Assembly (NCBI GenBank): GCA_043742365.1
Contig: JAYTYM010000065.1
Location: forward strand, 11,909-35,908
Length of the DNA: 24,000 nt
Origin: a bacterium
Lineage (GTDB): Bacteria > Patescibacteriota > Minisyncoccia > Phycocordibacterales > UBA6899
Reading direction: 5' to 3'
Shown piece after piece: positions 1 through 23,297 of this stretch; the stretch's first letter is position 1, and each line of letters begins with the position of its first letter. The notes under the pieces were generated by a model. The model saw only the letters and a program-made list of their open reading frames with translations, was not told the origin of the DNA and did not search any database. Made by a program: the position numbers and the translations under genes.

Positions 1-292
1 CGAGCTTGAGGTGTTGATCGAACAGTTTCTGTTGCGACTATAAAATTGGCTGTCTTTTATAAAAAAGACAATATAAAAGGCCGTCGGATTTGAGAGCCCG
101 CGGCCTTGATTTGGAGGAAAACTTTTTTTAATTGTGTAAAGAACTACTGCTTCTGCAGTAGTCCATTGCTTGAAAAATGAGGACTACTGAATTGCGTCTG
201 GGACAATCATACCTTTGTCCTTTAAGACTATCAAGGACATACTGTGGATAACTATTGAATAACCTGTTTATAATACACTTTAACATTATGTC

Positions 293-325
293 AAAAAAAC
301 ACTACCCATGATAGGTAGTGTTTTT
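293..325 (-). terminator. Intrinsic terminator downstream of adk
   Basis: A 7-bp stem CACTACC/GGTAGTG (299-305/314-320) is flanked by an A-run and a T-run. On the minus strand the hairpin is followed by a U-run. Confidence 0.6.
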
Positions 326-345
326 ATGCTAGTTGAGAATATGAC

Positions 346-1035
346 TTAAGCTAAATTTTTTCGAATCTCGCGGTCGACATGTTCAAATACGACAAATGGA
401 GCAGGTCTACCATTAACTTTCTTAACTTTGTGGCCACTTTGTTTTAAGAACTTCAAAATTGGCGCAGTACGTGTTTGATACTCCTCGATACGCTTGGGGA
501 TTATCTTGGCATTATCTAATGTACGTCTATAGAGGGCCCCACCGCAGGCTGGGCAATACTTCGCAGCTACCTTAGGGTAATATTTGACCAAAAGTGGAGT
601 ACGGCAGACGGTACAAAGTAGGCGTTTTCCATTGCGTTCGAGAGTATCTTTAGGATCAATATCAAGCAAAAAGAAGTTTACGCCTTTTTTGCTGTACAGC
701 TTCTCAAGTAGGGGTATAAGTGTTTCAGCTTCAGGCATCGTGCGAGGTGAACCTGAAAATACTACACCATGGCCTTTTTTTGCCAGTTTTGTCACTGCTT
801 TTGCTACTTCATTAAGCACAAAGCTTGGGGTATTGAGCTCGCCCTCTTCAAAAAGTTTCCGTTCGCGTTTTACGGTAGGGTCTTTTTGTCGTTTTGGGTC
901 ATACCATAGTGTTTCGAGGTATCTTCCTGTATCAAAATTCACTAAACCATATTTGTTCGCTATTAAATTTGCCTGAGTGCCTTTTCCGCTTCCTGGTAGA
1001 CCATACAGGGCTACTGCTATTTTTTCTTGTTGCAT
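346..1035 (-). CDS. adk: Adenylate kinase with zinc-knuckle LID
   Basis: 229-aa ORF. It has the N-terminal P-loop GLPGSGKGTQA, a LID region with CTVC...CPACGG, and overall Adk-like layout. Confidence 0.92.
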   Translation of the reverse strand: MQQEKIAVALYGLPGSGKGTQANLIANKYGLVNFDTGRYLETLWYDPKRQKDPTVKRERKLFEEGELNTPSFVLNEVAKAVTKLAKKGHGVVFSGSPRTMPEAETLIPLLEKLYSKKGVNFFLLDIDPKDTLERNGKRLLCTVCRTPLLVKYYPKVAAKYCPACGGALYRRTLDNAKIIPKRIEEYQTRTAPILKFLKQSGHKVKKVNGRPAPFVVFEHVDREIRKNLA

Positions 1036-1162
1036 GCTCAGATTGTACTAAATAATCAACTGCGGGGCCATTTTTATGCTCACAGCTCTAATTGATTCCT
1101 AATTTGACAAGATATTCGTTAAGAATAGAGTGATATCGGAATGTTTTTTAAAAGGCTTGTTT

Positions 1163-2323
1163 ATGAACTACCTTACTGTTGGCGTACCAAGGGAACGAAA
1201 ATTCAAAGAAGGCAGAGTCGGAATGATCCCTTCTGGCATCAAAGAGGTGATCTCGGTCGGTGAGCACGTGCGCGTGCTCGTCGAAAAAGGTGCAGGCATG
1301 CTCGCAGGATTTTCTGATGAAGACTATTTGGTCGCCGGAGCTACTGTCGTCGAAGACCAGAATGATCTCTATCGGTCCGCTGATCTTATTGTTAAGGTCA
1401 AAGAACCAACACCTGAAGAATATGGATTTCTCGCTCATTTGCGCCATAAAACGCTCTTTACCTATCTGCATTTGGCGGGGGTAGACATTGAGCTCACACG
1501 CACACTGCTGCGCAATGAAGTAACAGCGATCGCTTACGAAAACGTCGAGACAGAGTGCGAGGGAAGACGTACTTACCCCCTCCTCATTCCGATGTCCAAG
1601 ATTGCCGGAACCCAATCGATGCGTACAGCACTTCTGCGCTACACAAGCAAAAAGAAGGTGCGCGCGGTCATCATTGGTGGTGGAGTGGTTGGCGAAGCAG
1701 CGCTAATCGAGGCGCTCAAGAGCAAAGTTGCATCAATCACTGTTTTTGAACTTAACGACATTCGGATTCTCGAGCTCAATAAGCGCTATGCGAATGTAAA
1801 AGCACAAAAAACGAAAGTCTGCGTTTTGCCGATGCAGTCGATGCGGGAGGGTGAGGGCTTTTGTATGCTTACGCACGCGGATGTTGTGATAAGCGGAGTC
1901 ATGAATCCAGGTGGATCGGAAGCCCCCAAGGTTCTGACAGAGCGTGATTTTGCGGTGATGAAGAAGGGTTGTCTTATTGTTGATGTGGCAATTGATCAGG
2001 GCGGTTCAACAGAGTGGTCAAAACCCACACATCAAGGTGAGACGTACGAAAAAGATGGGCTCGTATTCTCATGCACAGCAAACATCCCCGGATCAGTGCC
2101 TCACGAGGCGACACTCGCTCTCACAAGCGCCACACTGCCCTATGTGAAGCTTTTTGCAGAGTACGCAAAGCAGCATCCCCACTCACGTGAATGGTGGCTA
2201 CTTAAGGACCACCTAGACTTACGCCACGGCTTGCAGACATGGAGAGGCTCACTAACTAATAAGCCGGTATCCTCGAAACACGGAATATTTCGTGAATACT
2301 GTCCTTTGGAAACATTTTTTTAA
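1163..2323 (+). CDS. ald: Alanine dehydrogenase / PNT-alpha family NAD-dependent dehydrogenase
   Basis: The N-terminus VGVPRERKFKEGRVGMIPSGIKEV..VLVEKGAGMLAGFSDEDY and LIVKVKEP..LFTYLHLA match AlaDH family motifs. The Rossmann motif is IIGGGVVGEAA. I start at ATG 1163 (MNYLTVGV) rather than the GTG at 1130. Confidence 0.75.
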   Translation: MNYLTVGVPRERKFKEGRVGMIPSGIKEVISVGEHVRVLVEKGAGMLAGFSDEDYLVAGATVVEDQNDLYRSADLIVKVKEPTPEEYGFLAHLRHKTLFTYLHLAGVDIELTRTLLRNEVTAIAYENVETECEGRRTYPLLIPMSKIAGTQSMRTALLRYTSKKKVRAVIIGGGVVGEAALIEALKSKVASITVFELNDIRILELNKRYANVKAQKTKVCVLPMQSMREGEGFCMLTHADVVISGVMNPGGSEAPKVLTERDFAVMKKGCLIVDVAIDQGGSTEWSKPTHQGETYEKDGLVFSCTANIPGSVPHEATLALTSATLPYVKLFAEYAKQHPHSREWWLLKDHLDLRHGLQTWRGSLTNKPVSSKHGIFREYCPLETFF

Positions 2324-2335
2324 GTACACACAAAC

Positions 2336-2365
2336 AACTCCGCAAGAATCTTGCGGAGTTTTATT
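2336..2365 (+). terminator. Intrinsic terminator after ald
   Basis: Hairpin AACTCCGCAAG-aatc-CTTGCGGAGTT is followed by TTATTAT. Confidence 0.65.
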
Positions 2366-2378
2366 ATATAATTCGACA

Positions 2379-2798
2379 ATGAAAGTCAGAAAGCTTAATT
2401 TTGGGTATATTTTTCGATTTGAAAAAGGGGATGAACTCATGTCTACCTTAGTGAAATTCATCTCTGACAATCAGAAACCTTTTGCTTCGTTCACACTCAT
2501 TGGTGCGACCACTGATGTGGAGTTGGGATTTTTCTCACTAAAAGACAAGGCATATCACTGGAGAAACTTCACTGGTGAATTTGAGATCGTGGGAGGTGTG
2601 GGTAATATTTCTCTTTATGAAGAAAAACCGATGATACATCTGCATATTACAATTGCCGACGATGAATACCGGGCATACGGTGGGCACGTTAGGAAACTCA
2701 TCGTAGGAGCAACGTGCGAGCTTACCCTTTTTACATCGAAGGTGGAGATTGAGCGCAAATTTGATGAGGGGACAGGACTGAATTTATTGGAGGTGTAA
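2379..2798 (+). CDS. PPC (DUF296) domain protein
   Basis: About 139 aa starting at MKVRKLNFGYIFRFEKGDEL. The pattern LIGA..vELgf......f.G.fEI..l.GNIs....p..HLH....d......GGHv is typical of the PPC/DUF296 fold. The upstream part of ORF 2292 runs through the ald terminator and is discarded. Confidence 0.65.
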   Translation: MKVRKLNFGYIFRFEKGDELMSTLVKFISDNQKPFASFTLIGATTDVELGFFSLKDKAYHWRNFTGEFEIVGGVGNISLYEEKPMIHLHITIADDEYRAYGGHVRKLIVGATCELTLFTSKVEIERKFDEGTGLNLLEV

Positions 2799-2805
2799 AA
2801 TATCA

Positions 2806-2914
2806 TTTTAGCAGGGACTCTCGCCTTACAGGCGCTGTACATCCTTCGTATTTCGCAGGCGAAATATACTTAGGGTCTTCGAGCCCTGCCGCAAGCTTTG
2901 CTTGCTTGGGGGCA
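2806..2914. repeat. Family-A tRNA-3'-end-linked structured module, tRNA-Lys copy
   Basis: Read on the minus strand: TGCCCCCAA (revcomp of the acceptor 3' strand), hairpin GCAAGC/GCTTGC, GCAGGGCTCGAAGAC (revcomp of the T arm), long hairpin CCTAAGTATATTTCG..CGAAATACGAAGG, ATGTAC, hairpin CGCC-TGTAA-GGCG, then GAGTCCCTGCT (a degenerate copy of the tRNA's GAGCCCTGCT). Confidence 0.6.
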
Positions 2915-2918
2915 CAGC

Positions 2919-2942
2919 AAAAAACCGCTTACGCGGTTTTTT
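2919..2942. terminator. Bidirectional hairpin terminator between the module and tRNA-Lys
   Basis: AAAAAACCGC-ttac-GCGGTTTTTT, with an A-run on one side and a T-run on the other. Confidence 0.6.
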
Positions 2943-2947
2943 CCTGA

Positions 2948-3020
2948 TGCCCCCAGCAGGGCTCGAACCTGCGACCGTTAGCTTAAAAGGCTACTGCTCT
3001 ACCAGCTGAGCTATAGGGGC
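2948..3020 (-). tRNA. tRNA-Lys (anticodon UUU)
   Basis: The reverse complement folds as a cloverleaf. Acceptor is GCCCCTA/TGGGGGC, anticodon loop CTTTTAA, T arm GCAGGTTCGAGCCCTGC. CCA is not encoded. Confidence 0.93.
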
Positions 3021-3057
3021 ATTTATTTCTTAATTACAATTCTTTAGACCTCTCCAG

Positions 3058-3171
3058 TTTACCCTGATACCTACCAAAACAGCATATAGCGGCATTACTT
3101 GCTCACACTAACAAATTACTGACTACTTCACTTTACCCTGATACCTACCAAAACAGCACATAGGGGTATTT
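3058..3171 (-). repeat. Two tandem 74-bp units upstream of tRNA-Lys, each a degenerate copy of the tRNA 5' part
   Basis: 3058-3097 and 3132-3171 share tttaccctgatacctaccaaaacagca(t/c)atag(c/g)gg(c/t)att. Their reverse complements (GCCGCTATATGCTGTTTTGGTAGGTATCAGGG and ACCCCTATGTGCTGTTTTGGTAGGTATCAGGG) align to the tRNA-Lys 5' end GCCCCTATAGCTCAGCTGGTAGAGCAGTAGCC. Confidence 0.55.
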
Positions 3172-3218
3172 ATTATCCAAAAGGGAATATGTGGAGATTA
3201 GCACAACCTCTGGGTTTT

Positions 3219-3596
3219 TTAAAGAGGAAGATCGAATGCGTGAGGACCGGCACCAAGGAAAAGCAGAGAAAGCGATACTACCCCAAGCAAAAGATAATAT
3301 TTTACTGTTTCAGGCGTAAACGACGCATTCTTGTTTTTGAAATAGATAGCCAACAGCGAAAGGGTGAATCCAATGACCCCAACTACTTGAACGTATAGGC
3401 CAAGGAAAAATCCCAAGCTAAGTAAAATGATGAGCGTTCCGAGTATCAACCACGCAAGACTTTCCTGACCACTCTTCGCGTGGCTAGAGCGCATGAAGCT
3501 GTATCCAATGAAGAAAAAGTAAAAACCCAAGAATATACGGAATATAAAAGGCACATACCAGCCCCAGTCGAGTAATTGTGGAAATAGTGACAACAT
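3219..3596 (-). CDS. Small four-TM membrane protein, DoxX-like
   Basis: 125 aa with four hydrophobic segments. The C-terminal GAGPHAFD resembles the DoxX GAGxxSxD ending. Assignment is by pattern only. Confidence 0.5.
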   Translation of the reverse strand: MLSLFPQLLDWGWYVPFIFRIFLGFYFFFIGYSFMRSSHAKSGQESLAWLILGTLIILLSLGFFLGLYVQVVGVIGFTLSLLAIYFKNKNASFTPETVKYYLLLGVVSLSLLFLGAGPHAFDLPL

Positions 3597-3650
3597 GCTT
3601 TGTATTATATCATGAGAAAATTCATCTATTAATGACCGTCAAATTACTCT

Positions 3651-4136
3651 ATGAAAGATACTGATGTAAAAAATATTCATGTGTTACTTCATGACATCCG
3701 CAGCGCACATAATGTCGGGTCTATGTTTCGTACTGCAGATGCAATAGGGGTAAGCAGTGTCTTCCTTTCAGGTCACACCCCATGCCCACTTGATAGATTC
3801 GGTCGTCCTGTAGCCGAGATTGCGAAGACCGCACTCGGGGCTGAGCAAAGCATAAGCTGGTCTTATGAAAAAGACCCAATTAAAGTCATAACCCAACACA
3901 AGGAATTAGGATATGCCATCGTAGGACTTGAACAAGATGAGCGAGCGGTTGACTATAAACAATTCTCCGCAACAAATAAAGTACTCTTTCTTGTAGGAAG
4001 CGAAGTGTTGGGGATTTCGAGCGAGATTAAAGAGCATTGCGACGTGCTTATCGAGATACCCATGCACGGTAAAAAAGAGTCTCTCAATGTCGCTGTTGCA
4101 TTCGGTATTGCCATGTTTCGACTTTTCGATAAATAA
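3651..4136 (+). CDS. SpoU/TrmH-family RNA 2'-O-methyltransferase
   Basis: SPOUT motifs are present: RSAHNVGSMFRTADAIG, LVGSEVLGIS and IPMHGKKESLNVAVAFGI. Confidence 0.85.
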   Translation: MKDTDVKNIHVLLHDIRSAHNVGSMFRTADAIGVSSVFLSGHTPCPLDRFGRPVAEIAKTALGAEQSISWSYEKDPIKVITQHKELGYAIVGLEQDERAVDYKQFSATNKVLFLVGSEVLGISSEIKEHCDVLIEIPMHGKKESLNVAVAFGIAMFRLFDK

Positions 4137-4149
4137 ATGACTGGGTAAA

Positions 4150-4292
4150 AAAAGAACCCCAATGCATGAGCATCGGGGCGGGAGTGGTTCCTATTTGTTG
4201 TTGCTTTACGCCGCCGTTTCGGGCGGGAGATGGATCACCCCCTTTCTATCGCGGGGAGGGCCCCGCTACCTGACTTTTTTAAGTATATTAAG
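4150..4292 (+). ncRNA. GC-rich structured intergenic segment (candidate small RNA or compound terminator)
   Basis: It lies between convergent genes in an AT-leaning genome. Hairpins are CCCCAATGC/GCATCGGGG, CCGCC-gtttcg-GGCGG and GCGGGG-aggg-CCCCGC, followed 7 nt later by CTTTTTT. GGGCGGGAG occurs twice. No family was recognised. Confidence 0.25.
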
Positions 4293-4305
4293 TCAACGGT
4301 ATCCG

Positions 4306-5589
4306 TCAAGCCCTTTGAGATGAAAGCAACTCCTTAAGTACTTTTCGTGCCACATCGCGGTCATCCCACGGAGTTTTCTTGCCATTCTCCTCCATAATAA
4401 AGGGATCAGTTCCTTTTCCTGTTATGAGTACAGCGGTATTTTGAGAGGCGTTCGCAAGTAGGATTGCATGAGCTATTGCATCTTTGCGGTCAACGATGAG
4501 TTGGGGTTTCTTGCTTTTCATTCCGAGCGCCATTGCTTCCATTATCTGCTTTGGGTCCTCATCGTATGGGTCCTCATTTGTAAGAATAATCTCTTTGCAG
4601 TACTCATCAGCGATACTTCCCATTACCGGCCTTTTCCACGTATCGCGGCCTCCGCCAGTGTTTCCAAGTACGCAGATCTTGTCATGATCTTTGAAAGTCT
4701 CATATACAGCGCGCAAAGAGTCTGGAGTATGCGCGTAATCGACAATTACCGGAAAATCCTGACCCTCTTCGATGCGCTCCATTCGTCCTTCTATCTGAAC
4801 AGTTTTCTCTATGCCACGCACGATCACTTCATCAGAGATATTTAAGGCTCGGGCTGCTGTGGCTGCACCGAGGATATTGTAGGCATTAAAGAGACCCGGT
4901 AGGGGCGAGCGTGCGACATGGCCTCGCCACTCTAGTGTCGTGCCATTTTCAGTTGATTCGACGGCTCCGCCATCATTTATCGCAAATGGAATCGGCGTGA
5001 TGTTGGGTAATTCAAGGAAATAGTGCGCTTTCTTGTCATCGCTATTTGCGACCATGAATCGCTTTGATTTGATTGAGCGACTGAGTGTGCGACCAATAGA
5101 AAGCTTCGCATCACGATAAGCTTCATATGAACCATGTGATTCGATATGCTCTGGTGCGAGGTTGGTGAAGATGAGCATGTCCATGTCTATGAATCGTTGC
5201 CTGAACTGTTTCGCGCCTTCTGAGGTCATCTCAAGTATTGCGTGCGTGCACTCTGCATCGACTGCGTCTCGGATAAATTTTTGTACAAAAAACCGCCCTG
5301 GAATGGTCATCTTGCGCATATTGCGAACACTCTTGTCTCCTATTTTAAAGCGTAGCGTACCTAAGACAGCAGTCTTTGCACCGCTTTCTTCTAGGATGTT
5401 GTTTAATATCTCAGTTGTGCTCGTTTTTCCTTTTGTTCCTGTGACGAGAATGACGCTAATATGTCGTGATGGAAAGCGATAACGCACTGCACCCGCAAGC
5501 GAAAGCAAAAAATGATACGTAGGTTGCAGTGATCGATATACTCGCTTTGGTATCAATGTTTCGATTTTGCGTAGGCTCCTTTCAAGCAT
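4306..5589 (-). CDS. murE: Mur ligase, MurE-like (UDP-MurNAc-tripeptide synthetase)
   Basis: ATP-binding motif VTGTKGKTST is present, along with TNLAPEHIESHG, DYAHTPDSL and TNEDPYDEDP, which are typical of MurE. I prefer the start at ATG 5589 (MLERSL); the alternative at 5634 would overlap the upstream gene. Confidence 0.75.
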   Translation of the reverse strand: MLERSLRKIETLIPKRVYRSLQPTYHFLLSLAGAVRYRFPSRHISVILVTGTKGKTSTTEILNNILEESGAKTAVLGTLRFKIGDKSVRNMRKMTIPGRFFVQKFIRDAVDAECTHAILEMTSEGAKQFRQRFIDMDMLIFTNLAPEHIESHGSYEAYRDAKLSIGRTLSRSIKSKRFMVANSDDKKAHYFLELPNITPIPFAINDGGAVESTENGTTLEWRGHVARSPLPGLFNAYNILGAATAARALNISDEVIVRGIEKTVQIEGRMERIEEGQDFPVIVDYAHTPDSLRAVYETFKDHDKICVLGNTGGGRDTWKRPVMGSIADEYCKEIILTNEDPYDEDPKQIMEAMALGMKSKKPQLIVDRKDAIAHAILLANASQNTAVLITGKGTDPFIMEENGKKTPWDDRDVARKVLKELLSSQRA

Positions 5590-5621
5590 TTCCGCATCAT
5601 AACACAGGAGTGCAAAGCAAT

Positions 5622-7463
5622 TTAAGGAAGCCAATCCCAGAAGAGGGTGTAGGTGGAACTAATAGGAGCAGCAAATTGGATGGTCGAAACATTAAGATAA
5701 TACGTACGGTTCAGTTGCAGGACACAGATTCCGGGACCCCCTGCGCTGGTTGTTATCTTGATGTTTACCTGCGTCGTTCCGAGTGATCCACCGTTACCAC
5801 AGAAACCAGAGACGTTCTTTCCGGGCGAAGGAACTGTCGCTGCCCCTGAAGAAAGATCGCCAGGCATTTCACTTATTGAAGCAAGGACATCTGCGGGTAA
5901 GACAATTAAGGGACAAACAGGACCAAAGCCAAAGTCAGGACAGACAGGAGGTGGACCAGGGCAAAGCGCAAGATCAAGTGAAGCGGGAACGGGGAATTCG
6001 GGCTCGTCTCCGCCTACGATGTGGATCGCGCCGCCTCCAGTAGGGGAAGTGATCTTAAATGCGTATGAGTCGACGGTTACCGCGGTGGTTACCGCTTTGC
6101 CATTTGCGGGTCGACAAAGTGGTGGATTAGGAGGTGCTCCCAATAGTGCAGGTAATGCGTAGCAGGTCGTCGTCGCACTCGAAGTACACGCTGCCTGAAC
6201 TTCAATCGCCACCTTCTTCGTCGTGCAATTATTTGCGGGGTCGCAAACTTTCACTGACAATTGATGGAAACCGACCTTTGTAGTGTCGAGATTCATTAGC
6301 ACAGTCCTCGTCATTGCTGGAGTTGGACATGTCCCACTCGAACAGATACTTGTGGAAAAGAATATGCCGCCACCTGGGTTAAGTGTCTCTGCGCTTGCGC
6401 GATCGATGGCGAAATTATCTGTAGCGGTAAATGTAAGCGACACAACTCCCGATGTTGTTGCGAGGCCCACTACAGGCTGGGTGATGATGACAACGGGGGG
6501 AGTGATATCTGAGTCATTATCAAGAATGGTCACCACAACTGAGGGTATGCTTCCGAGTATCAAAGCGCCCGTTGGATTGAATAGGTTTACTGTAAATTGT
6601 TCATTGGGCTCAGTGATTATATCGTTAAGGATAGGCACCGTTATGGTGAGTGTTGAGACTGCAGCAGGAAACACGAGCGTTCCCGAAACCGCACCAAAGT
6701 CACTTCCTGCAATTGCAGTCCCCGACACCGTTGTGTAGTCAATGGTTCCCGCACCCAGACCCACGCGCTTGACCACAAGTACAATGCTTCCTCCACCCTC
6801 GTTCACGGAAGCAGTTGAAACGAGGAACGATACGGAAGGAATTATCACGGGGGGTACAATTGGAGGGGCAGGTGGCGGTAAAAGCGGAGTAGGAACTGGA
6901 GGGGGAAGCCCGACGGGAGGTGGGGGAGGAATGGGGATATCGACGTAGCGGCAGCAAATATCTCCGATCATGGGGGGAGGACCGGCACAAAATGCAGGCG
7001 CTACACTAGAAACGATCTTTCCAACGATAGAAGGACAAGTAGGGCCGGGTTTCCAGCTGTAGGTACCGGATGGTGGAGGAGGTGGGGTAGGAGCCCCGAC
7101 GACCGCAGGGGCCACAGAAAGTGTTGCATCATTTTTGAGCAACAAGGGGTTGATCGTGTTAAGCAAAAGCCATGAACCCACTGCAAGCAAGATGCCCAAT
7201 ATGGCATTCGTGATACATTTTTTTGCCTCACTCTTTCCTCCTGCCGAACCTGAGCCCATCAGTCGTATGCCGCAGATAACGATCATGATGACCGCAAGCA
7301 CCCCAGTAATTCCAATGAGCGTTTGAAATATTCCCTGAACATATTGCGTAAGTGTCACTGTTCCAGGAAGTGTTCCGACAGGGGCGAGGAGGTCATAGGT
7401 AGCAGGCGCTGCAAGTGCGACTGCGGGAAGAAATGATAAAAGTAAAATTGTGATCTTTCTCAT
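5622..7463 (-). CDS. Exported fusion protein: VirB2/TrbC-like pilin N-terminus, Pro-rich linkers, Calx-beta domain, Cys-rich C-terminal region
   Basis: Signal peptide MRKITILLLSFLPAVALA is followed by a two-helix hydrophobic hairpin (GIFQTLIGITGVLAVIMIVICG...NAILGILLAVGSWLLL) like T4SS pilins. PPPPP tracts follow. The Calx-beta signature is VNEGGGSIVLVVKRVG..IDYTTVSGTAIAGSDF..GTLVFPA..TLTITVPILND...EPNEQFTVNL. Confidence 0.7.
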   Translation of the reverse strand: MRKITILLLSFLPAVALAAPATYDLLAPVGTLPGTVTLTQYVQGIFQTLIGITGVLAVIMIVICGIRLMGSGSAGGKSEAKKCITNAILGILLAVGSWLLLNTINPLLLKNDATLSVAPAVVGAPTPPPPPSGTYSWKPGPTCPSIVGKIVSSVAPAFCAGPPPMIGDICCRYVDIPIPPPPPVGLPPPVPTPLLPPPAPPIVPPVIIPSVSFLVSTASVNEGGGSIVLVVKRVGLGAGTIDYTTVSGTAIAGSDFGAVSGTLVFPAAVSTLTITVPILNDIITEPNEQFTVNLFNPTGALILGSIPSVVVTILDNDSDITPPVVIITQPVVGLATTSGVVSLTFTATDNFAIDRASAETLNPGGGIFFSTSICSSGTCPTPAMTRTVLMNLDTTKVGFHQLSVKVCDPANNCTTKKVAIEVQAACTSSATTTCYALPALLGAPPNPPLCRPANGKAVTTAVTVDSYAFKITSPTGGGAIHIVGGDEPEFPVPASLDLALCPGPPPVCPDFGFGPVCPLIVLPADVLASISEMPGDLSSGAATVPSPGKNVSGFCGNGGSLGTTQVNIKITTSAGGPGICVLQLNRTYYLNVSTIQFAAPISSTYTLFWDWLP

Positions 7464-7468
7464 AAAAT

Positions 7469-8044
7469 TTATTTGCGCCCTCCAAGAGTTTGAAGTGCTT
7501 TACGGATAATATCTTGAGTGGTCATGGATTCTTTGGCGAGCATTCGGACTAATTCTCGTGTGTCTTTGGGTGAGTACCCGAGCGCCTCGAGAGCATCGAG
7601 CGCTTCTGTTTCAGGTAAGGCTACACCACCTTCACGCTGGGTAATGTTTCCCATCTTATCTCGGAGTTCAAGGATGATCTTCTCTGCGAGCTTTTTTCCA
7701 ATACCTGAAACCTTGGTCATATACTCACTTTCACCGCTTGCAATGGCTGTAGCGAGGGTCGTGACATCAGCAAGTGCGAGGACACTCAACGCGCTTTTCG
7801 GTCCGATACCTGATATTCCGATAAGCAGACGAAAAAGTGCTATTTCGTCTCGCTTGCTAAAGCCATACAGATCAAGCGCATCTTCTTTGACCACCAAGTG
7901 TGTCCACAGACTGACTTTCTCGCCTTCTTTTGTGCTCTGCGCTGTTGCAGGTGTCACAGAGAGGGTATAGCCAAGGCCTCCCACATCCACGATAACAACG
8001 CGCTCTTCCTTAAACAGTACAGTGCCTGTGATGTGACCAATCAT
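7469..8044 (-). CDS. ruvA: Holliday junction DNA helicase subunit RuvA
   Basis: N-terminus MIGHITGTVLFKEERVVIVDVGGLGYTLSV. HhH motifs are GISGIGPKSA and VSGIGKKLAEKI. Length is 191 aa. Confidence 0.92.
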   Translation of the reverse strand: MIGHITGTVLFKEERVVIVDVGGLGYTLSVTPATAQSTKEGEKVSLWTHLVVKEDALDLYGFSKRDEIALFRLLIGISGIGPKSALSVLALADVTTLATAIASGESEYMTKVSGIGKKLAEKIILELRDKMGNITQREGGVALPETEALDALEALGYSPKDTRELVRMLAKESMTTQDIIRKALQTLGGRK

Positions 8045-8918: not shown

Positions 8919-9080
8919 ATTATTCATACAGTATAACGGGGAAGAGGGTGAATGCAAAGATGAGAAATGTTGAGATGTGCGTAGTCGTGGAATGGGTGCG
9001 TCATAAAACGCTTTTGACCTAAGTATCCTGAACTCTTCAGTGTGGTCGATTTATAAAATCTTTAATGTCCTAATTTTGCC

Positions 9081-9300
9081 GGGGAAGCTCCATTACATGG
9101 ACGGTACACCTTTCGTATTTCGCACCACGGAGAGTACTTAAAAATTACAGTACTCGAGAGCCGTAGGCACTCGCATTCTTCAAAGTGGATTACCGCTAAG
9201 AAGAATTGGGTCGCTCGATGTCATGTTTAGTCGAAGACGAAATATATTCAAGGTTTTCGATAGGATATCTCTGCTTAAAGCAGAAGTACCTCTTTCCCAT
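9081..9300. repeat. Family-A module, distal copy at the tRNA-Arg(GCG) locus, interrupted
   Basis: 9090-9122 matches 9367-9399 with 1 mismatch in 33 nt. 9232-9261 matches 9398-9427 with 1 mismatch in 30 nt. The two halves are separated by 109 extra nt. Confidence 0.55.
9123..9231. mobile_element. 109-nt insertion in the apex of hairpin 2 of the distal module (family-B-like sequence)
   Basis: The intact paralog reads cgtatttcgaagacgaaata (9391-9410). The interrupted copy reads cgtatttcg-[109 nt]-cgaagacgaaata, with CG on both sides. The insert carries agagtactt-N8-cagtactcgag, which also occurs at 21052-21079. Confidence 0.5.
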
Positions 9301-9330
9301 TTACTAAGGATAAGAATCCTTCATAAATAT

Positions 9331-9466
9331 GGGTGAAGGGCTTCGATTCCTCGATAGGAGTATCTTCCATTACGTGGACGGTACACCTTTCGTATTTCGA
9401 AGACGAAATATACTCAAGGTTTTCGATTCCTATTCAGAAGCCGAGCAGTTGGCTTCTTCTCGGGCA
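9331..9466. repeat. Family-A module, proximal copy at the tRNA-Arg(GCG) locus
   Basis: Minus strand reads TGCCCGA, GAAGAAGCCAACTGCTCGGCTTC hairpin, ATAGGAATCGAAAACCTT, GAGTATATTTCG-tctt-CGAAATACGAAAGG, TGTAC, CCA-CGTAA-TGG, then TCCTATCGAGG (a copy of the tRNA T-stem/acceptor). Confidence 0.6.
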
Positions 9467-9513
9467 TGTTATACAAAAAGACAGCACAATGTGCTGTCTT
9501 TTTGTATAACATG
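9465..9513. repeat. Perfect 23-bp inverted repeat with a 3-nt loop, probably a bidirectional terminator
   Basis: 9465-9487 (catgttatacaaaaagacagcac) is the exact reverse complement of 9491-9513, with loop aat. The right arm overlaps the last 2 nt of tRNA-Arg. Confidence 0.8.
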
Positions 9514-9583
9514 CCCTCGATAGGAATCGAACCTATATTTAAAGTTCCGCAAACTTTTGTCCTATCCATTGAACGACGAGGAC
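9512..9583 (-). tRNA. tRNA-Arg (anticodon GCG)
   Basis: Reverse complement is GTCCTCG-TC-GTTC-AATGGATA-GGAC-A-AAAGT-TTGCGGA-ACTTT-AAAT-ATAGG-TTCGATT-CCTAT-CGAGGGC-A. All four stems pair. Confidence 0.88.
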
Positions 9584-10277: not shown

Positions 10278-11105
10278 TTATTTCGCACCTTTCTTCTTTT
10301 TGCCACTGCCGGGCTGGTCCTTTTGGCCGCCGTTGCCTTTGGAGGGTTGGGCGGCGAGGCGCTGCGCGCGGTTGTTTTCACGCTTGGCTTCACGCTTGGC
10401 ACGGTCGACGGAAGAAGTCGGACTTTTCGCTTCGCCTGCTCGCGAGGAGTCGTCGATGGCACCGCCACGCACGAGGATCTCGGCGCCAGACTTCTGGTGG
10501 AAGTAGACGGCATCACGGCCGTTCTTCGCATTGCAGAAGTACTCACAACCCATCTCTTCGAGGAGGATCACCTTCGCTTCGAGGTTGATGTCCTCGCGGC
10601 GCAGATGACCCAGGGCAGTCGACACGACGTCTTGAATGTAGCCGACGCGCAGGCGTTCCTTGTGGGCAACCTCCTCTTCCGTCTGAGCGCGCTCTTCGTT
10701 GCGGCGCTCTTCTTCGCGCAGGCGGTCTTCCTCGAGGCCGCGAGTGAGCACGTCCGCGGGGATCGCGATTGCGATCGGACGCGGGGTGCTGCCCTTGCGG
10801 ACCTTGAAGGAGTTCACCAGCTTCAGGCCTTGCTCATCTGGGAGTTGCGTGATGCAACCGACGAGCGAGACGTTCTGGGTCAGCCTCTCATCCGCTTGAA
10901 GCTTTAGCGTGGCTGCCTTTTCGGCTGCACGCTTGGCTTTGTTGGCGGCCTTGCGCTCCGCATGTGCTGCCAGGTTCGCAGCGGCCTGTTCCTCGGAAAC
11001 GGTCACGAGGCTGAGGTTCGCCTGGGCGAAGGGGGCGTGGCGGAAATTCGCCAGTTCTTGTTGGTTCGAAGAAGAGTTCTGACCAAATTGCGGGGCGGTG
11101 ACCAT
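10278..11105 (-). CDS. GC-rich orphan protein with a Lys/Arg/Glu-rich coiled-coil centre and a basic tail; no recognisable family
   Basis: Long ORF with abrupt GC elevation: I counted 39 G+C in the 60 nt at 10321-10380, against 27/60 at 9721-9780. I prefer the ATG at 11105, which is preceded by GGAG about 8 nt upstream; GTG 11162 is the alternative. Shadow ORFs lie on the opposite strand, as expected for high GC. Confidence 0.6.
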   Translation of the reverse strand: MVTAPQFGQNSSSNQQELANFRHAPFAQANLSLVTVSEEQAAANLAAHAERKAANKAKRAAEKAATLKLQADERLTQNVSLVGCITQLPDEQGLKLVNSFKVRKGSTPRPIAIAIPADVLTRGLEEDRLREEERRNEERAQTEEEVAHKERLRVGYIQDVVSTALGHLRREDINLEAKVILLEEMGCEYFCNAKNGRDAVYFHQKSGAEILVRGGAIDDSSRAGEAKSPTSSVDRAKREAKRENNRAQRLAAQPSKGNGGQKDQPGSGKKKKGAK

Positions 11106-11162
11106 GATTAGTGCTCCAAAAAGTCCAAAACCGTGGACGAATCGGGGTAGGTCGTATTTCAC

Positions 11163-11206: not shown

Positions 11207-11387
11207 GCAAATAAATACATTACAAACAGCATAATTCTGTTAATATCTTATCACAAATTGTCTATATTGTCAAGTTTTTCAATAGAGAAGATTGGCGACC
11301 TTTTTACTTCGTTTTTTGCCATATTTCTATTTTTGGGTATAGTAATGTGCACGCAGAAAGTTCTTTTTTAAAATTTTGTAGCAATGC

Positions 11388-11474
11388 GGAGGAGTGGCTG
11401 AGTGGTTGAAGGCAACAGTCTTGAAAACTGTCGTACATTTACGTGTACCGTGAGTTCGAATCTCACCTCCTCCG
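11388..11474 (+). tRNA. tRNA-Ser (anticodon UGA), long variable arm
   Basis: Acceptor GGAGGAG/CTCCTCC, anticodon arm ACAGT-CTTGAAA-ACTGT, variable arm CGTACATTTACGTGTACCG, T arm GTGAGTTCGAATCTCAC, discriminator G. Confidence 0.93.
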
Positions 11475-11494
11475 CATTGGGACAAATTATTTAT

Positions 11495-11603
11495 TTGTCA
11501 CAGTAGAGAGGAGAGAAAGTGCCTCGCGGAACTTTCAGGTGAGATTCGAAAGACTTTTCGATGCCGATTCAGAGAGGCCGAAAAGTACCTGCCGATGTAA
11601 TCG
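11495..11603. repeat. Family-A module, tRNA-Ser copy
   Basis: Plus strand reads GAGAGGAGA, GAAAGTGCCTCGCGGAACTTTC hairpin, AGGTGAGATTCGAAAGAC (revcomp of the T arm), CTTTTCG..CGAAAAG hairpin, TAC, GCCGA-TGTAA-TCGGC, and then direct repeat 2 of the tRNA end. Confidence 0.55.
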
Positions 11604-11604
11604 G

Positions 11605-11683
11605 CGAATCTCACCTCCTCCACATTGGGATAAATTGTTTATATTCGAATGTCACCTCCCCCGCACCGGGACAAAATTTACAG
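11605..11683 (+). repeat. Second and third direct copies of the tRNA-Ser 3' end plus trailer
   Basis: cgaatctcacctcctccGcattgggaCaaattAtttat (11457-) compared with cgaatctcacctcctccAcattgggaTaaattGtttat (11605-). A third, more diverged copy is ttcgaatgtcacctcccccgcaccgggacaaaattt (11644-). Confidence 0.7.
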
Positions 11684-15762: not shown

Positions 15763-15780
15763 AGCTTGATCCGGCCGGAG

Positions 15781-15905
15781 TGATGTTGCGAGTCCTCGAG
15801 AAACCACGAGGCGAGGTCACGAGCACTTAACAGAATTCAAGCGCAGCGAAGAATTATGTTTAGTGACTTGGGGCACTATGCGAAGTTCAATGCCAAGGTA
15901 TCATG
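15781..15905. repeat. Family-B repeat copy downstream of tRNA-Arg(UCU)
   Basis: ggtcacgagcactta / gcgcagcgaa / ttagtgacttg / ggcactatgcgaa / ccaaggt parallel ggtcgcaagtactta / gcgaagcgaa / ttagtaacttg / ggcactttcgcga / ccttggt at 20595-20682, in the same order. Confidence 0.45.
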
Positions 15906-20394: not shown

Positions 20395-20478
20395 GCCCAG
20401 GTGGCGAAATTGGTAGACGCACTACCTTGAGGTGGTAGCGCCCGCAAGGGCATGGAGGTTCAAGTCCTCTCTTGGGCA
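20395..20478 (+). tRNA. tRNA-Leu (anticodon GAG), long variable arm
   Basis: Acceptor GCCCAGG/CTTGGGC, anticodon arm CTACC-TTGAGGT-GGTAG, variable arm CGCCCGCAAGGGCAT, T arm GGAGGTTCAAGTCCTCT. Confidence 0.92.
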
Positions 20479-20525
20479 CAATATGACCGCACAAATGCAA
20501 AGCATTTGTGCGGTTTCATATTGTA
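20479..20525. terminator. Long palindromic hairpin after tRNA-Leu(GAG)
   Basis: caatatgaccgcacaaatgc-aaa-gcatttgtgcggtttcatattg, with a small bulge. The palindrome continues outward into the tRNA 3' end and its inverted copy at 20526-20548. Confidence 0.65.
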
Positions 20526-21121
20526 GCCCAAGAGAGGACTTGAAAGACGGAGGCGGTCTACGATTTCGCTTTGCGAAATTGTCGCCGAGTCGGGGTCGCA
20601 AGTACTTATGAGCGAAGCGAATTAGTAACTTGTGACCAAGTCCTCTACAGGCACTTTCGCGAGAGGACTTGAAAACCTTGGTGCGACCAAATTTTTCTTT
20701 GATGTCCTCATCTTAGAAAAATTGAAGTACTCTTGTGGTGATGTTTTGGCTTTGCAAAACCACCAAGGTGTACCGTCCCCGTAGGGGAAAAGTCCTAACT
20801 TGAAAGACGGAGCCTATGTTTCGCCAGCGACCAAAAACTCTTGAGCGTAGCGATTAGAGATTTGAAGTACTCCTGTGGTGCATGCGAAACCGCGAGCGAC
20901 ATTATTTGCTTATGAGCTAGCGAATTTAGCAAATAAGACGTGCCTGTGGCGCGGGGTCGCAGAAATTTCTGAGCGACCAAAAGTATGCGACCAGAGTGAG
21001 ATAAAATTGGAAGCACTCTTTGTGGTGTGGCGACAAAAAAATATCACTACAAGAGTACTTCCAAATTTCAGTACTCGAGGACACGATGAAGTTTTAGGTC
21101 GCTGTGACAAAGTCCTCCACA
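20526..21121. repeat. Series of three tRNA-Leu(GAG)-linked modules (families A and B), each ending in a copy of the T-arm 3' half
   Basis: AAGTCCT(C/A) occurs at 20462 (the tRNA), 20638, 20790 and 21110. The inverted tRNA end tagcccaagagaggacttgaa is at 20526. The 15-mer acttgaaagacggag is at 20538 and 20798. gcgaccaaa..ttgaagtactcYtgtggtg recurs with a period of about 145 bp. Confidence 0.6.
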
Positions 21122-21149: not shown

Positions 21150-21671
21150 CTATTCACTGACTACAGTTACAAATTCAACTGCCGTCTTTGGTTCCACAAA
21201 GAACTTTTCTGTTTGTGTATAGCGAACTCCTTGAATCTGCGGCTTTTCTTTTAATAGCGCTTCTTTGTCGATGGATTCTATGTTGCGGATATATTTCGTC
21301 AGCTCAAGACTCTTGAGAATGTCTAGGATCTTTTCATCGCCGCCACGTCCGGCAGTCACCTTAGGCGGAGTCAGTCTCCACCCGAATATCCCCGAAGAAA
21401 GAGTGACTGTTTTCTTGTCGGCAGCAAGTAATTCTTGCCGATGCTTCACTGCGAATAGTTTGATATTCACTACATGATTTGCAGTTTGTGCCTGAAGTGG
21501 TTTTATCGCCGCATCTGCTTCTTGGCGCAATGTCGCAACTTTTTCTGCAAGTTCGCGTTCGATAGTTTCGGTTGAGCGTACCAGAATACCCACAATGTGT
21601 AGGACGCCATTTGCCTCATCGATGTTTTGTATAGGATGAATAGGGGTCGATTTTTTTGCTCGGCTCATCAT
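21150..21671 (-). CDS. gam: Phage Mu Gam-like host-nuclease inhibitor (DNA-end-binding) protein
   Basis: 173 aa. The segment GIFGWRLTPPKVTAGRGGDEKILDILKSLELTKYIRNIESIDKEALLKEKP parallels Mu Gam GDVSWRVRPPSVSIRGMDAVMETLERLGLQRFIRTKQEINKEAILLEP (recalled from memory). The N-terminal half is coiled-coil. Confidence 0.8.
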   Translation of the reverse strand: MMSRAKKSTPIHPIQNIDEANGVLHIVGILVRSTETIERELAEKVATLRQEADAAIKPLQAQTANHVVNIKLFAVKHRQELLAADKKTVTLSSGIFGWRLTPPKVTAGRGGDEKILDILKSLELTKYIRNIESIDKEALLKEKPQIQGVRYTQTEKFFVEPKTAVEFVTVVSE

Positions 21672-21811: not shown

Positions 21812-22834
21812 ATGGAAACGAACATCGTCTCTCTGCCGCACATCACGCAATACCACGCTTCGATCCAGAATCCACACTTTGACGTTGATCTCGTTACAAC
21901 GAACATTTTTGAAAAGCACGGGCAAGTGATAATGATCGATCCAAGGCGGGTGCAGCCGCTGTCTGATCAGCCTCGCCAAAGCTCGAACCCCGGATTCAGT
22001 CTCGAGTCGATTGCCGCACTTTCGATGTGTATTAGTGCTGAAGGCCAGATCGAACCGGCACTCATTGCTCCGCCGACCAAGTCGGGGTGGGACGCAGCTC
22101 TCGTTGATGGCGAACGCAGGCATCGCGCGTGCCTGCATGGCAACATGATGCTTATGGCGCGCGTTGACTTGAGCATCACGAACCCAGAAGAGCACTTCGT
22201 GAAATCAGTGATGGCCAATTTCCACAGGGAAGGCCATACGTGCATCGAGATCATGTATGCGGTTAAGCGTATGCAGACAACTCGCACGAGAGAGCAGATC
22301 GCTACCGTCTTTGGTCGCTCTGTGCAATGGGTGGATCTACATATCTCGCTCATGCGACTCGACGAAGCGCTACACCCATTTCTTGTCGATCAAGAAGTAG
22401 AGCAAGAGGGTGATGGCACAGGCGAGCAAGTCGAAATCAAAAAGCGAGGTCGCAAGCAAACGGGTAAGCTGACATTTCAGCTCGCTCTTGTTATTTCTGG
22501 TTTGCCCAAAAGCGATCAGATGAATGTCGCCAAGGAGGTGCTTGGTAAACGAATGCCCTACGATGTAGCCCGCAGATACGTATTGCGCTATATCGACGAC
22601 AACGGCATTGTTACGAAATATTCGAAGCGTTCGCCGAGCGAGTCATTTCAGTCGCTTGAAAAAGCGGCTGGTACCGCTGAAAATAAATTTGGTGTTTTCA
22701 TCGACAAGAATCCGCGCACACTTCGTGAACTTTTTGATACTCAGTCCCCGATGGACCGTAGATTGCTTGCAGAAAAGCTCCGACTTCTAAGTGTAGATAT
22801 TTCGTCACTTGCGGATATCCTGTCACCTCAGTGA
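21812..22834 (+). CDS. ParB/Sulfiredoxin N-terminal domain protein with HTH (ParB/KorB-like); no ParA partner
   Basis: A ParB box is present (ALVDGERRHRAC). An HTH-like segment follows (TREQIATVFGRSVQWVDLHISLMRL). Length is 340 aa. It is transcribed divergently from gam. Confidence 0.75.
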   Translation: METNIVSLPHITQYHASIQNPHFDVDLVTTNIFEKHGQVIMIDPRRVQPLSDQPRQSSNPGFSLESIAALSMCISAEGQIEPALIAPPTKSGWDAALVDGERRHRACLHGNMMLMARVDLSITNPEEHFVKSVMANFHREGHTCIEIMYAVKRMQTTRTREQIATVFGRSVQWVDLHISLMRLDEALHPFLVDQEVEQEGDGTGEQVEIKKRGRKQTGKLTFQLALVISGLPKSDQMNVAKEVLGKRMPYDVARRYVLRYIDDNGIVTKYSKRSPSESFQSLEKAAGTAENKFGVFIDKNPRTLRELFDTQSPMDRRLLAEKLRLLSVDISSLADILSPQ

Positions 22835-22873: not shown

Positions 22874-22909
22874 GTAAGTCGTAAAAACAATCTCTGCTTG
22901 CGAAGTGAG

Positions 22910-22991
22910 TGGGCGTGGGGAGACTCGAACTCCCAACCCTTACGGGATACGCTTCTGAGACGTACGCGTATACCAATTCCGCCACACGCCC
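22910..22991 (-). tRNA. tRNA-Leu (anticodon CAG), long variable arm
   Basis: Reverse complement: acceptor GGGCGTG/CACGCCC, anticodon arm TACGT-CTCAGAA-GCGTA, variable arm TCCCGTAAGGGTT, T arm GGGAGTTCGAGTCTCCC. Confidence 0.92.
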
Positions 22992-22993
22992 AC

Positions 22994-23297
22994 TCACCAC
23001 ACAAACTTTCTATACTCCGCTCCTGAGACGTACGCGACTATATTCTTTTGCAATTCCCCCACACGCCCACTCACCACACAAACTTTCTATACTCCGCTCC
23101 TGAGACGTACGCGACCATATTTATTTGCAGTTCCTCCTCACACTCACTGCACAAGTTCTCTATGATTACGTTTATTAGACGTAAGCGACTATATTCTTTT
23201 GCAATTTCACCACAAACCCAGATGTTCCAATAACATTTATGCTTCGATTCTAAGGCGTACGAGACCTCATTCTTTGGCAGTTCCCCCTTCTAGTCAC
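22994..23297 (-). repeat. Tandem array (4 units, 74-77 bp) of degenerating copies of the tRNA-Leu(CAG) upstream spacer plus 5' two-thirds
   Basis: Units start at 23023, 23100, 23174 and 23250, and each resembles 22955-22993 of the real gene. The 29-nt spacer tcaccacacaaactttctatactccgctc is identical at 22994 and 23071. Similarity decays with distance from the gene. Confidence 0.75.

Follow-up and report, generated by a model that had tools for sequence, protein, structure and literature searches.

Repeated 3' ends of a tRNA-Ser gene in a Parcubacteria-type bacterium as possible arms and relics of a tRNA-anchored hairpin module

REP, BIME and REPIN sequences, the pneumococcal BOX, the Neisseria Correia and Rickettsia RPE elements and the IS200/IS605-derived PATEs are short non-coding mosaics of exchangeable hairpins. 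Hairpin repeats of the REP and BOX types carry nested insertions and vary in copy number, and the REP hairpin is preceded by GTAG. Tandem inversion duplications, described in Salmonella, arise by snap-back template switching at quasi-palindromes. Here we describe a tRNA-Ser(UGA) gene that is followed by repeated copies of its own 3' end, in a stretch of 24,000 nucleotides of contig JAYTYM010000065.1 (assembly GCA_043742365.1; "the window" below means the whole of this 24-kb stretch). The unit of 110 nt inserted between the first two copies belongs to a stereotyped family of modules that follow tRNAs in the ultra-small, Parcubacteria-type bacteria of the candidate phyla radiation (CPR). The best reading that we can offer, held at a little under even confidence, is that the repeated tRNA-Ser ends belong to a nested-hairpin module anchored at the tRNA, as its arms and relics, and are not the footprints of an integrase.

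Direct and inverted copies of the tRNA-Ser 3' end

A repeat search found a 38-nt unit in three direct copies reading downstream from the tRNA-Ser 3' end, with spacings of 148 and 41 nt. The parts of the locus are as follows.

11316-11343, plus strand: promoter-like site 5' of tRNA-Ser, TTGCCA and TATAGT with a 16-nt spacer (10/12 in a consensus scan, a consensus match alone)
11388-11475, plus strand: tRNA-Ser(UGA), found by ARAGORN and by Rfam RF00005 (59 bits), with the end at 11475/11474
11457-11494, plus strand: direct copy 1 (S1), the reference, comprising T-loop positions 56-60, the T-stem 3' strand, the acceptor 3' strand and a 19-nt trailer
11476-11504, plus strand: turnaround hairpin T1, stem 11481-11487/11493-11499, loop TATTT, from RNA folding
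11506-11513, plus strand: S'a, degenerate inverted acceptor 3' strand (GAGAGGAG), an inverted pair of which 11510-11513 pairs with 11618-11621 in the minimum-energy fold
11514-11536, plus strand: H1, family-conserved hairpin AGAAAG..CTCGCG..CTTTC, from the fold; a perfect palindrome in the ortholog of relative L013
11537-11550, plus strand: S'b, perfect inverted T-loop, T-stem 3' strand and first acceptor base (AGGTGAGATTCGAA), 100% complementary
11551-11588, plus strand: P3 hairpin, stem 11553-11560/11579-11586, from the fold and aligned to the covariance model R1 (see below)
11585-11588, plus strand: GTAC, family-conserved, at the end of P3
11589-11605, plus strand: P4 hairpin (at 11591-11605) GCCGAT GTA ATCGGC with a conserved GTA loop, from the fold and from P4 covariation across 35 modules
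11605-11642, plus strand: direct copy 2 (S2), the right module arm, which pairs with S'b and S'a; 35/38 identical to copy 1 (92%)
11644-11683, plus strand: direct copy 3 (S3), decaying, with the ancestral trailer GGGACAAAATTT; in register at 11646-11683, 29/38 identical (76%)

In the tRNA itself the acceptor 3' strand occupies 11467-11473 and the discriminator G 11474, and CCA is not encoded. The first-pass annotation, made from the letters of the window, had noted a repeat of the tRNA end and trailer at 11605 with three mismatches and a more diverged copy at 11644. Our search recovered both, with the register of copy 3 corrected to start at 11646; the TT at 11644-11645 is the remnant of its T-loop. 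With up to 3 mismatches allowed, the 30-mer had two matches and the 20-mer three, against 0.00 expected from 100 shuffles. The three-copy arrangement is also present in a related species (L013, contig JAYVMS010000006.1) that was assembled independently, and the layout is therefore not an assembly artefact. Two further remarks of the annotation were borne out, namely that the copies enclose non-coding DNA, the unit inserted between them being non-coding, and that Ser-specific inverted segments lie between copies 1 and 2. One of these segments, AGGTGAGATTCGAA at 11537-11550, is a perfect complement of 11455-11468 (14/14; T-loop, T-stem 3' strand and first acceptor base), and the other, GAGAGGAG at 11506-11513, complements the acceptor 3' strand only in part, at 6 of 8-9 positions.

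If the copied segment is called S, it stands once in the tRNA (from 11457), inverted as S' (11493-11550) after a turnaround, and direct again (from 11605). TTCGAA and CGAAT flank the second junction, and the loop of the turnaround is at 11489-11493. The left arm of T1 is the native trailer and the right arm an inverted copy of it; the hairpin is AT-rich and not terminator-like, and the trailer of its left arm, GGGACAAA, is common to copies 2 and 3 and to the relative L001. H1 divides S', being inserted at the acceptor/T-stem boundary of the inverted copy, and a P3-GTAC-P4 cassette lies between S' and copy 2. The minimum-energy fold of the Ser module (-57 kcal/mol; z = -5.6 against shuffles) joins S'b and ATTC to GAAT and the T-stem strand of copy 2 in a helix of 11 bp, and the GGAG of S'a to the CTCC of copy 2. 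A scan for plus-strand terminators between tRNA-Ser, the module and ruvX found none, suggesting that the Ser module is probably co-transcribed with tRNA-Ser.

The leader of tRNA-Ser (11370-11394) complements its trailer (11467-11491) at 84% over 25 nt, which would lengthen the acceptor stem, and this complementarity is present also in L001 and L002. An extended acceptor stem as a general feature was rejected, the mean being 6.6/14 versus 6.1 in controls.

A module family downstream of tRNA genes

The same order of parts, that is, tRNA, turnaround hairpin, inverted acceptor strand, H1, inverted T-stem and loop, P3, GTAC, P4 and direct copy, is found after tRNA-Lys, tRNA-Arg(GCG), tRNA-Val and tRNA-Leu(GAG) in the window and after tRNAs of syntenic relatives. 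We scanned 185,579 species-representative genomes, metagenome contigs and viral contigs with a 21-nt pattern from the interior of P3. The species-representative genomes contained 9 true modules, all in CPR metagenome-assembled genomes (MAGs), and the metagenome contigs 9-10 more; the viral contigs gave no match. The modules found by the pattern follow tRNA-Arg, Val (three anticodons), Ser (two), Cys, Pro (two), Lys (two), Leu (several), Trp and Tyr, and modules occur after tRNAs of at least 12 specificities. A covariance model, R1, was built from 17 pattern-found modules with no window sequence in its seed. R1 detected the Ser module (E = 6.4e-11) and four others in the window.

11516-11613, plus strand: Ser module, extent by R1, 47.6 bits
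2813-2908, minus strand: sister module after tRNA-Lys(UUU), 59.1 bits
9357-9456, minus strand: sister module, first of a three-unit array after tRNA-Arg(GCG), 68.2 bits
15251-15368, minus strand: sister module after tRNA-Val(UAC), 45.6 bits
20689-20797, plus strand: sister module, second array unit after tRNA-Leu(GAG), 58.3 bits

R1 gave 35 strong hits in 199 kb, of which 26 start 16-56 nt past the 3' end of a tRNA on the same strand and 3 more stand second in an array. All modules have the orientation of their tRNA. At the CPR loci, a cognate inverted copy of T-loop and T-stem (at most 1 mismatch in 12) lies within 400 nt downstream of 32/54 distinct tRNAs and upstream of none (0/54), in a sample enriched by the manner in which the loci were found; a non-cognate control matched in 3.4%. 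Where loci were picked by synteny alone, the cognate copy was present at ~11/22 tRNAs. The module architecture follows about half of the tRNA genes in the Parcubacteria-type CPR clade. In a scan with Rfam 15 only tRNAs passed the threshold, the module region giving a sub-threshold match to sX4 (30.8 bits versus 70); at E<=1, with the modules of L006, L008 and L019 included, no relevant RNA family or small ribozyme appeared.

H1, P3, GTAC and P4 are common to the modules of different tRNAs, and their subtypes are combined as a mosaic. In an alignment of 35 modules 94.3% of the cells pair, and 25/26 pairs change on both sides; the covariation score was 0.66, versus 0.215 for shuffles and ~0.1 for slid controls. 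Stems are nearly all Watson-Crick, with ~3% G-U. The constant parts are the P4 loop GTA, the P3 loop GCTTTG, the H1 loop CTGC and the GTAC junction, and the minimum-energy folds of 25 modules have a common architecture of outer helix, H1, P3 and P4. In most modules, and across many tRNAs, the H1 insert of 22-25 nt is at most one nucleotide away from the acceptor/T-stem boundary. On the tRNA-sense strand G-U outnumbers A-C mismatches 28 to 16 (p=0.05) in the model alignment, with inconsistent results from other counts (12 to 17 in per-hairpin minimum-energy folds; 4 to 0 in H1 and P4).

The arms are always those of the adjacent tRNA: S'a, S'b and the direct copy match it and change with it from genome to genome. 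The arms at tRNA-Leu(GAG), for example, are caaGtcc/ggaCttg in the window and caaAtcc/ggaTttg in L004, and variants of tRNA-Val(UAC) are followed likewise. Asymmetric T-loops appear reverse-complemented in S' (Lys, TTCGAGC to GCTCGAA; Leu, TTCAAGT to ACTTGAA), so that S' is a true inverted copy. The same loops led us to reject the idea that S' copies the tRNA 5' strands directly and is a direct pseudo-tRNA. Three other candidates were also rejected. A cassette derived from the inverted or direct tRNA body fails because its similarity is no better than that of shuffled sequence. A primer-binding site of retroviral type fails because the inverted copy has no TGG complementing CCA and instead includes the complement of the trailer. 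Finally, the CGAA flanking the cassette as a target-site duplication is inseparable from the palindromy of TTCGAA, and non-palindromic tRNA-Leu loops show no direct duplication.

Some modules or cassettes have no callable tRNA upstream (L006 470-571, L008 5442-5543, L019 10447-10548 and L016 6836-6893). The orphan arms in L006 and L008 match tRNA-Ser(GCU)-like and tRNA-Leu-like 3' ends and lie beside decayed tRNA remnants; the orphans of L019 and L016 lie in other non-coding contexts. A second module family occurs at 20520-21120 and 15770-15880 of the window, both on the plus strand, with the order inverted T-loop copy, AGACGG or CCGGAG, GGGGTCGCAAGYACTTA, TTAGTGAYTTGTGACC and direct tRNA copy. 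After tRNA-Leu(GAG) it stands in arrays together with the first family; it occurs also after tRNA-Arg(UCU), and in L011 has an inner P3 hairpin sequence in common with the first family. Very long near-perfect palindromes occur at 9462-9516 and 20459-20544; each begins within the tRNA 3' end, spans the terminator and reaches into the inverted copy. Their arms are 27 nt and perfect at tRNA-Arg and ~40 nt at tRNA-Leu(GAG), where the palindrome gave weak Rfam hits of microRNA-precursor type.

Gain, loss and exchange, and how the module may arise

In L001, whose RuvX is 96% identical to that of the window, tRNA-Ser is followed directly by attgggacaaaatttcag, the trailer that stands after copy 3 in the window, so the site is single-copy. 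L002 has at tRNA-Ser a 45-nt S-S tandem with no module, equivalent to the 41-nt unit formed by copies 2 and 3 of the window. Of the three copies in L013, copy 2 is 20/20 identical to the tRNA. At tRNA-Val, a first terminator and the module are common to the window and to the more distant relatives L002 and L004, and L001 retains only the second terminator, which in the window stands after the direct copy. L001 therefore lost its module through recombination of the direct repeats, and its empty state at tRNA-Val is a secondary loss. At tRNA-Val and tRNA-Arg the modules are vertically inherited.

Cassettes are exchanged and interrupted as well. Between the orthologous tRNA-Arg(GCG) loci of the window and L013 the flanks are ~95% identical and P3 is wholly replaced by another subtype; the array there has three units in the window (9080-9460, minus strand) versus one in L013, and the third unit carries an insertion of ~108 nt (9123-9230) in its P3 loop. 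Nested insertions in P3 loops are found at both the tRNA-Arg(GCG) and the tRNA-Leu(GAG) arrays. On one contig (L024), cores ~95% identical follow tRNA-Lys(CUU) and tRNA-Leu(UAA) with wholly different arms. Both L002 (Lys) and L011 (Gly) have, upstream of the intact gene, a decaying direct tRNA copy whose T-loop is occupied by a cassette.

The pseudo-tRNA-Lys of L002 (806-1050, minus strand) has an 86-nt insertion in the D-loop and an enlarged anticodon loop, and its T-loop holds a P3-GTATAC-P4 cassette and a further hairpin; L011 has the same design for tRNA-Gly (6450-6660, minus strand). In the window, two degenerate 74-nt copies of the tRNA-Lys 5' part lie 5' of tRNA-Lys (3047-3170, minus strand), in the place orthologous to the pseudo-tRNA of L002. 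Four to five tandem units of 74-77 nt (22974-23296, minus strand) lie 5' of tRNA-Leu(CAG) (22909-22991). These units consist of the 5' two-thirds of the tRNA and its leader (acceptor 5' strand, D-arm with a 14-nt insertion and anticodon arm), and they stand on the 5' and not the 3' side of the gene.

The account to which we lean, rating it as not quite an even chance, is that, at the DNA level, the tRNA 3' end is folded back and directly re-copied about a hairpin cassette that can be exchanged. DNA synthesis or repair at this end would turn back at the trailer or terminator hairpin and copy S in reverse as far as the T-loop. A return to the direct strand at the palindromic T-loop TTCGAA would then give S, S', S, as in a tandem inversion duplication; the predicted intermediate is an S-S'-S junction with no cassette, for example GGTGAGATTCGAATCTCACC. 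The hairpin cassette would occupy the T-arm-like S'/S junction and may spread among tRNA loci by gene conversion or insertion, with the near-universal T-loop sequence as homology. The direct repeats would drive growth of arrays, truncation of units (the 41-nt unit of copies 2 and 3) and clean loss, as in L001. We propose that the hairpins stay intact because propagation or maintenance of the element needs them; a putative role for the host, such as a structured trailer or terminator, would be secondary.

The S, S', S order, the exchange of cassettes, the nested and disruptive insertions and the losses are all seen in the data. The Ser module has the three copies, the inverted middle copy and the junctions at quasi-palindromes that characterize a tandem inversion duplication. 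Its junctions do not consist of local sequence only, H1, P3 and P4 being common to modules at other tRNAs.

Several points weigh against the inferred pathway of fold-back copying. A sequence-blind DNA mechanism leaves the placement of H1 at the acceptor/T-stem boundary unexplained, and selection on a folded single strand explains it better. The Ser module differs between the window and L013 at 2/129 positions, versus 14/120 for copies 2 and 3 with their spacer, and this better conservation leans to a function of the sense strand. So do the placement of H1, the loops and junction nucleotides (GTAC, the GTA loop and CTGC), which are conserved while the stems covary, and the weak excess of G-U over A-C (28 to 16, p=0.05).

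These points bear on the main alternative, possible but less likely than fold-back copying, in which the module would encode a functional tRNA-sense RNA, made by read-through or from its own start, and predicted to mimic the top half of the tRNA. S'a and S'b would pair with the direct copy, or with the 3' half of the tRNA itself, to form a cognate acceptor/T-stem helix; H1 would branch off at the point from which the D and anticodon arms of a real tRNA emerge, with P3 and P4 in place of the T-loop. Such an RNA might serve as a processing signal, decoy or sensor for RNase P, RNase Z or the CCA-adding enzyme. The in-silico folds do contain coaxial acceptor-like and T-like helices with a 7/49 branch, and H1 lies at the equivalent of the 7/49 boundary (+/-1 nt) in most modules. 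A common fold in 25 modules, together with the z of -5.6 for the Ser module, the 25/26 covarying pairs with conserved loops, the weak G-U excess (28 to 16 overall; 4 G-T versus 0 A-C in H1 and P4), the conservation of the module above its flanks, the constant co-orientation with the tRNA and the probable co-transcription at tRNA-Ser, where no plus-strand terminator precedes ruvX, are consistent with this alternative. However, most other loci have a strong intrinsic terminator between tRNA and module, about half of the modules do not have the acceptor part of the direct copy, and close relatives such as L001 lose modules with no replacement. Only ~3% of pairs are G-U, tRNA copies in L002 and L011 are interrupted and inactivated by cassettes, and no Rfam family matches.

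The first-pass annotation had read the repeats as the result of tandem accretion, in which a tyrosine or serine recombinase would have integrated repeatedly into the T-loop of tRNA-Ser, each integrant bringing a replacement 3' end, and the units would be deletion remnants or cis-mobilisable mini-elements. What stands of this proposal is the form of the repeats. The direct copies begin in the T-loop, as do genuine prophage att (attachment) sites in tRNA-Ser (TTCGAAT), and partial tRNA-Ser copies in viral contigs start exactly at TTCGAATCTC. Identity falls with distance from 92% to 76%, the outermost copy being the most decayed and retaining the ancestral trailer, and L001 has a single-copy site, although the empty state of L001 at tRNA-Val is a secondary loss and L002 has S-S with no module. 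The clade also has a recombinase-borne insertion at a tRNA 3' end, found in L004 at tRNA-Arg(GCG) and absent from L005.

Integration by a recombinase is not supported. The scanned open reading frames (ORFs) of the 24-kb window contain no integrase, transposase or reverse transcriptase domain, so that no recombinase lies in or near the unit, and a matching attP, for which the annotation had suggested a search, was not found in viral contigs. Neither the module nor the window trailer occurs in 2.9 million viral contigs, where the matches to the tRNA-Ser 3' 21-mer belong to prophage att sites outside the CPR that have different trailers. On the strength of these scans for the module and the CPR trailer we rejected a phage or plasmid donor of attP. 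The unit has no cargo and occurs at at least 12 tRNA specificities with tRNA-matched inverted arms, which would need a dozen or more matched attP specificities, and we know of no attP organised with tRNA-matched inverted arms. Vertical inheritance of modules at tRNA-Val and tRNA-Arg also speaks against repeated integration, which we consider very improbable. The contigs L004 (~200-7600) and L005 are near-identical and differ by the insertion at the tRNA-Arg(GCG) 3' end, which in L004 carries a large serine recombinase (Resolvase, Recombinase and zinc-ribbon domains) and helix-turn-helix genes; L005 has a hairpin module in its place. Genuine tRNA 3'-end integration therefore also occurs in this clade.

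The least probable reading, which we give next to no weight, is that tRNA-Ser, or the 3' part of it, was duplicated in tandem and the copy then decayed, the module being a degraded second tRNA: decaying partial tRNA copies are indeed common (the 5'-part repeats at tRNA-Leu(CAG) and tRNA-Lys, the pseudo-tRNAs in L002 and L011) and the module-free S-S tandem of 41-45 nt in L002 resembles a plain duplication, but the T-loop and acceptor segments of the module are reverse-complemented and the cassettes have no similarity to the tRNA body in either orientation, which excludes plain duplication and decay, the cassettes are common to unrelated tRNAs, and no relative was seen to have the second full tRNA-Ser by which the annotation would have recognized such an event.

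Genomic setting, relation to described systems and significance

The neighbouring genes in the window encode adenylate kinase, a Mur ligase, RuvA, RuvX, a tRNA-binding-domain protein, PilM, UPP synthase, an RluA-type pseudouridine synthase, ribosomal protein L19 and a Mu Gam-like protein. By its RuvX homologues the window falls among Parcubacteria-type CPR MAGs from groundwater and glacier streams. The Mu Gam-like gene, for a DNA-end-binding protein (21150-21671, minus strand), adjoins the tRNA-Leu(GAG) module array and keeps this place in L004 and L005; the ORF that follows (21812-22834, plus strand) is weakly ParB-N-like. Immediately 5' of tRNA-Ser lies an ORF of 294 aa with no Pfam match (10278-11162, minus strand), in a stretch of 52-56% G+C versus ~44% for the window. 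L002 and L004 have a syntenic gene of 375-400 aa.

Integrase att duplications, including the accretion of integrative and conjugative elements and cis-mobilisable elements (ICE-CIME), resemble the present locus in their direct repeats of a tRNA 3' end beginning in the T-loop, their decaying outer copy and their single-copy relatives. Unlike them, the module has no recombinase, cargo or attP donor, holds an inverted cognate copy and conserved hairpins, and occurs at a dozen or more tRNA specificities. The hairpin repeats of REP type are similar in being mosaics with nested insertions and varying copy number, and GTAC before the P4 hairpin recalls their GTAG. In contrast to these repeats, the arms of the module are copied from the adjacent tRNA, and its position and orientation are fixed immediately downstream of the tRNA; to our knowledge the modules have no RAYT or TnpA partner. 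A tandem inversion duplication has the same S, S', S order, and the first junction of the Ser module is a hairpin turnaround and the second the palindrome TTCGAA. The module differs in that it duplicates only 20-50 nt and recurs at many loci, a conserved cassette fills its second junction, and a conserved hairpin divides the inverted copy.

Two classes of RNA also invite comparison. The tRNA-like structures (the tRNA-like domain of tmRNA, viral 3' structures, YrlA and mascRNA) are matched by the predicted acceptor and T-stem helix with a branch of the 5' strand at 7/49. However, the module has no elbow, because two hairpins replace the T-loop, and no CCA, and its helix is a perfect complement of the 3' strand of the neighbouring tRNA rather than a diverged paralogue. 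T-box riboswitches likewise use one conserved scaffold many times with short tRNA-matched segments. T-boxes read the anticodon and the NCCA end and lie upstream of aminoacyl-tRNA synthetase or amino-acid genes, whereas the modules match the T-loop, T-stem and acceptor 3' strand and lie downstream of the tRNA gene itself.

Each of these systems shares one or two features with the module and none shares the combination, and a full-text literature search found no description of the module. With low confidence, we suggest that the modules form a distinct class, a conserved three-hairpin scaffold that re-templates both of its arms, one inverted and one direct, on the T-loop, T-stem and acceptor 3' strand of the neighbouring tRNA and so gives each tRNA a cognate top-half mimic. 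The class would be either an integrase-free mobile element that targets the T-loop or a family of tRNA-specific cis RNAs with T-box-like logic applied to the acceptor/T domain.

Direct repeats of tRNA 3' ends, which are routinely taken for integrase scars, have another source in CPR genomes, namely a module that copies the end in both orientations. Modules of this kind will mislead programs that call genomic islands, att sites and tRNA pseudogenes on CPR MAGs, and model R1 could be used to annotate them. If the modules are mobile, they would represent a new targeting logic, with the T-loop as a universal anchor and the arms templated locally, and would help to explain the non-coding DNA and interrupted tRNA pseudogenes around the tRNA genes of these streamlined genomes. 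If they are transcribed mimics, they would be a new class of tRNA-specific RNA in a phylum whose RNA processing is poorly known.

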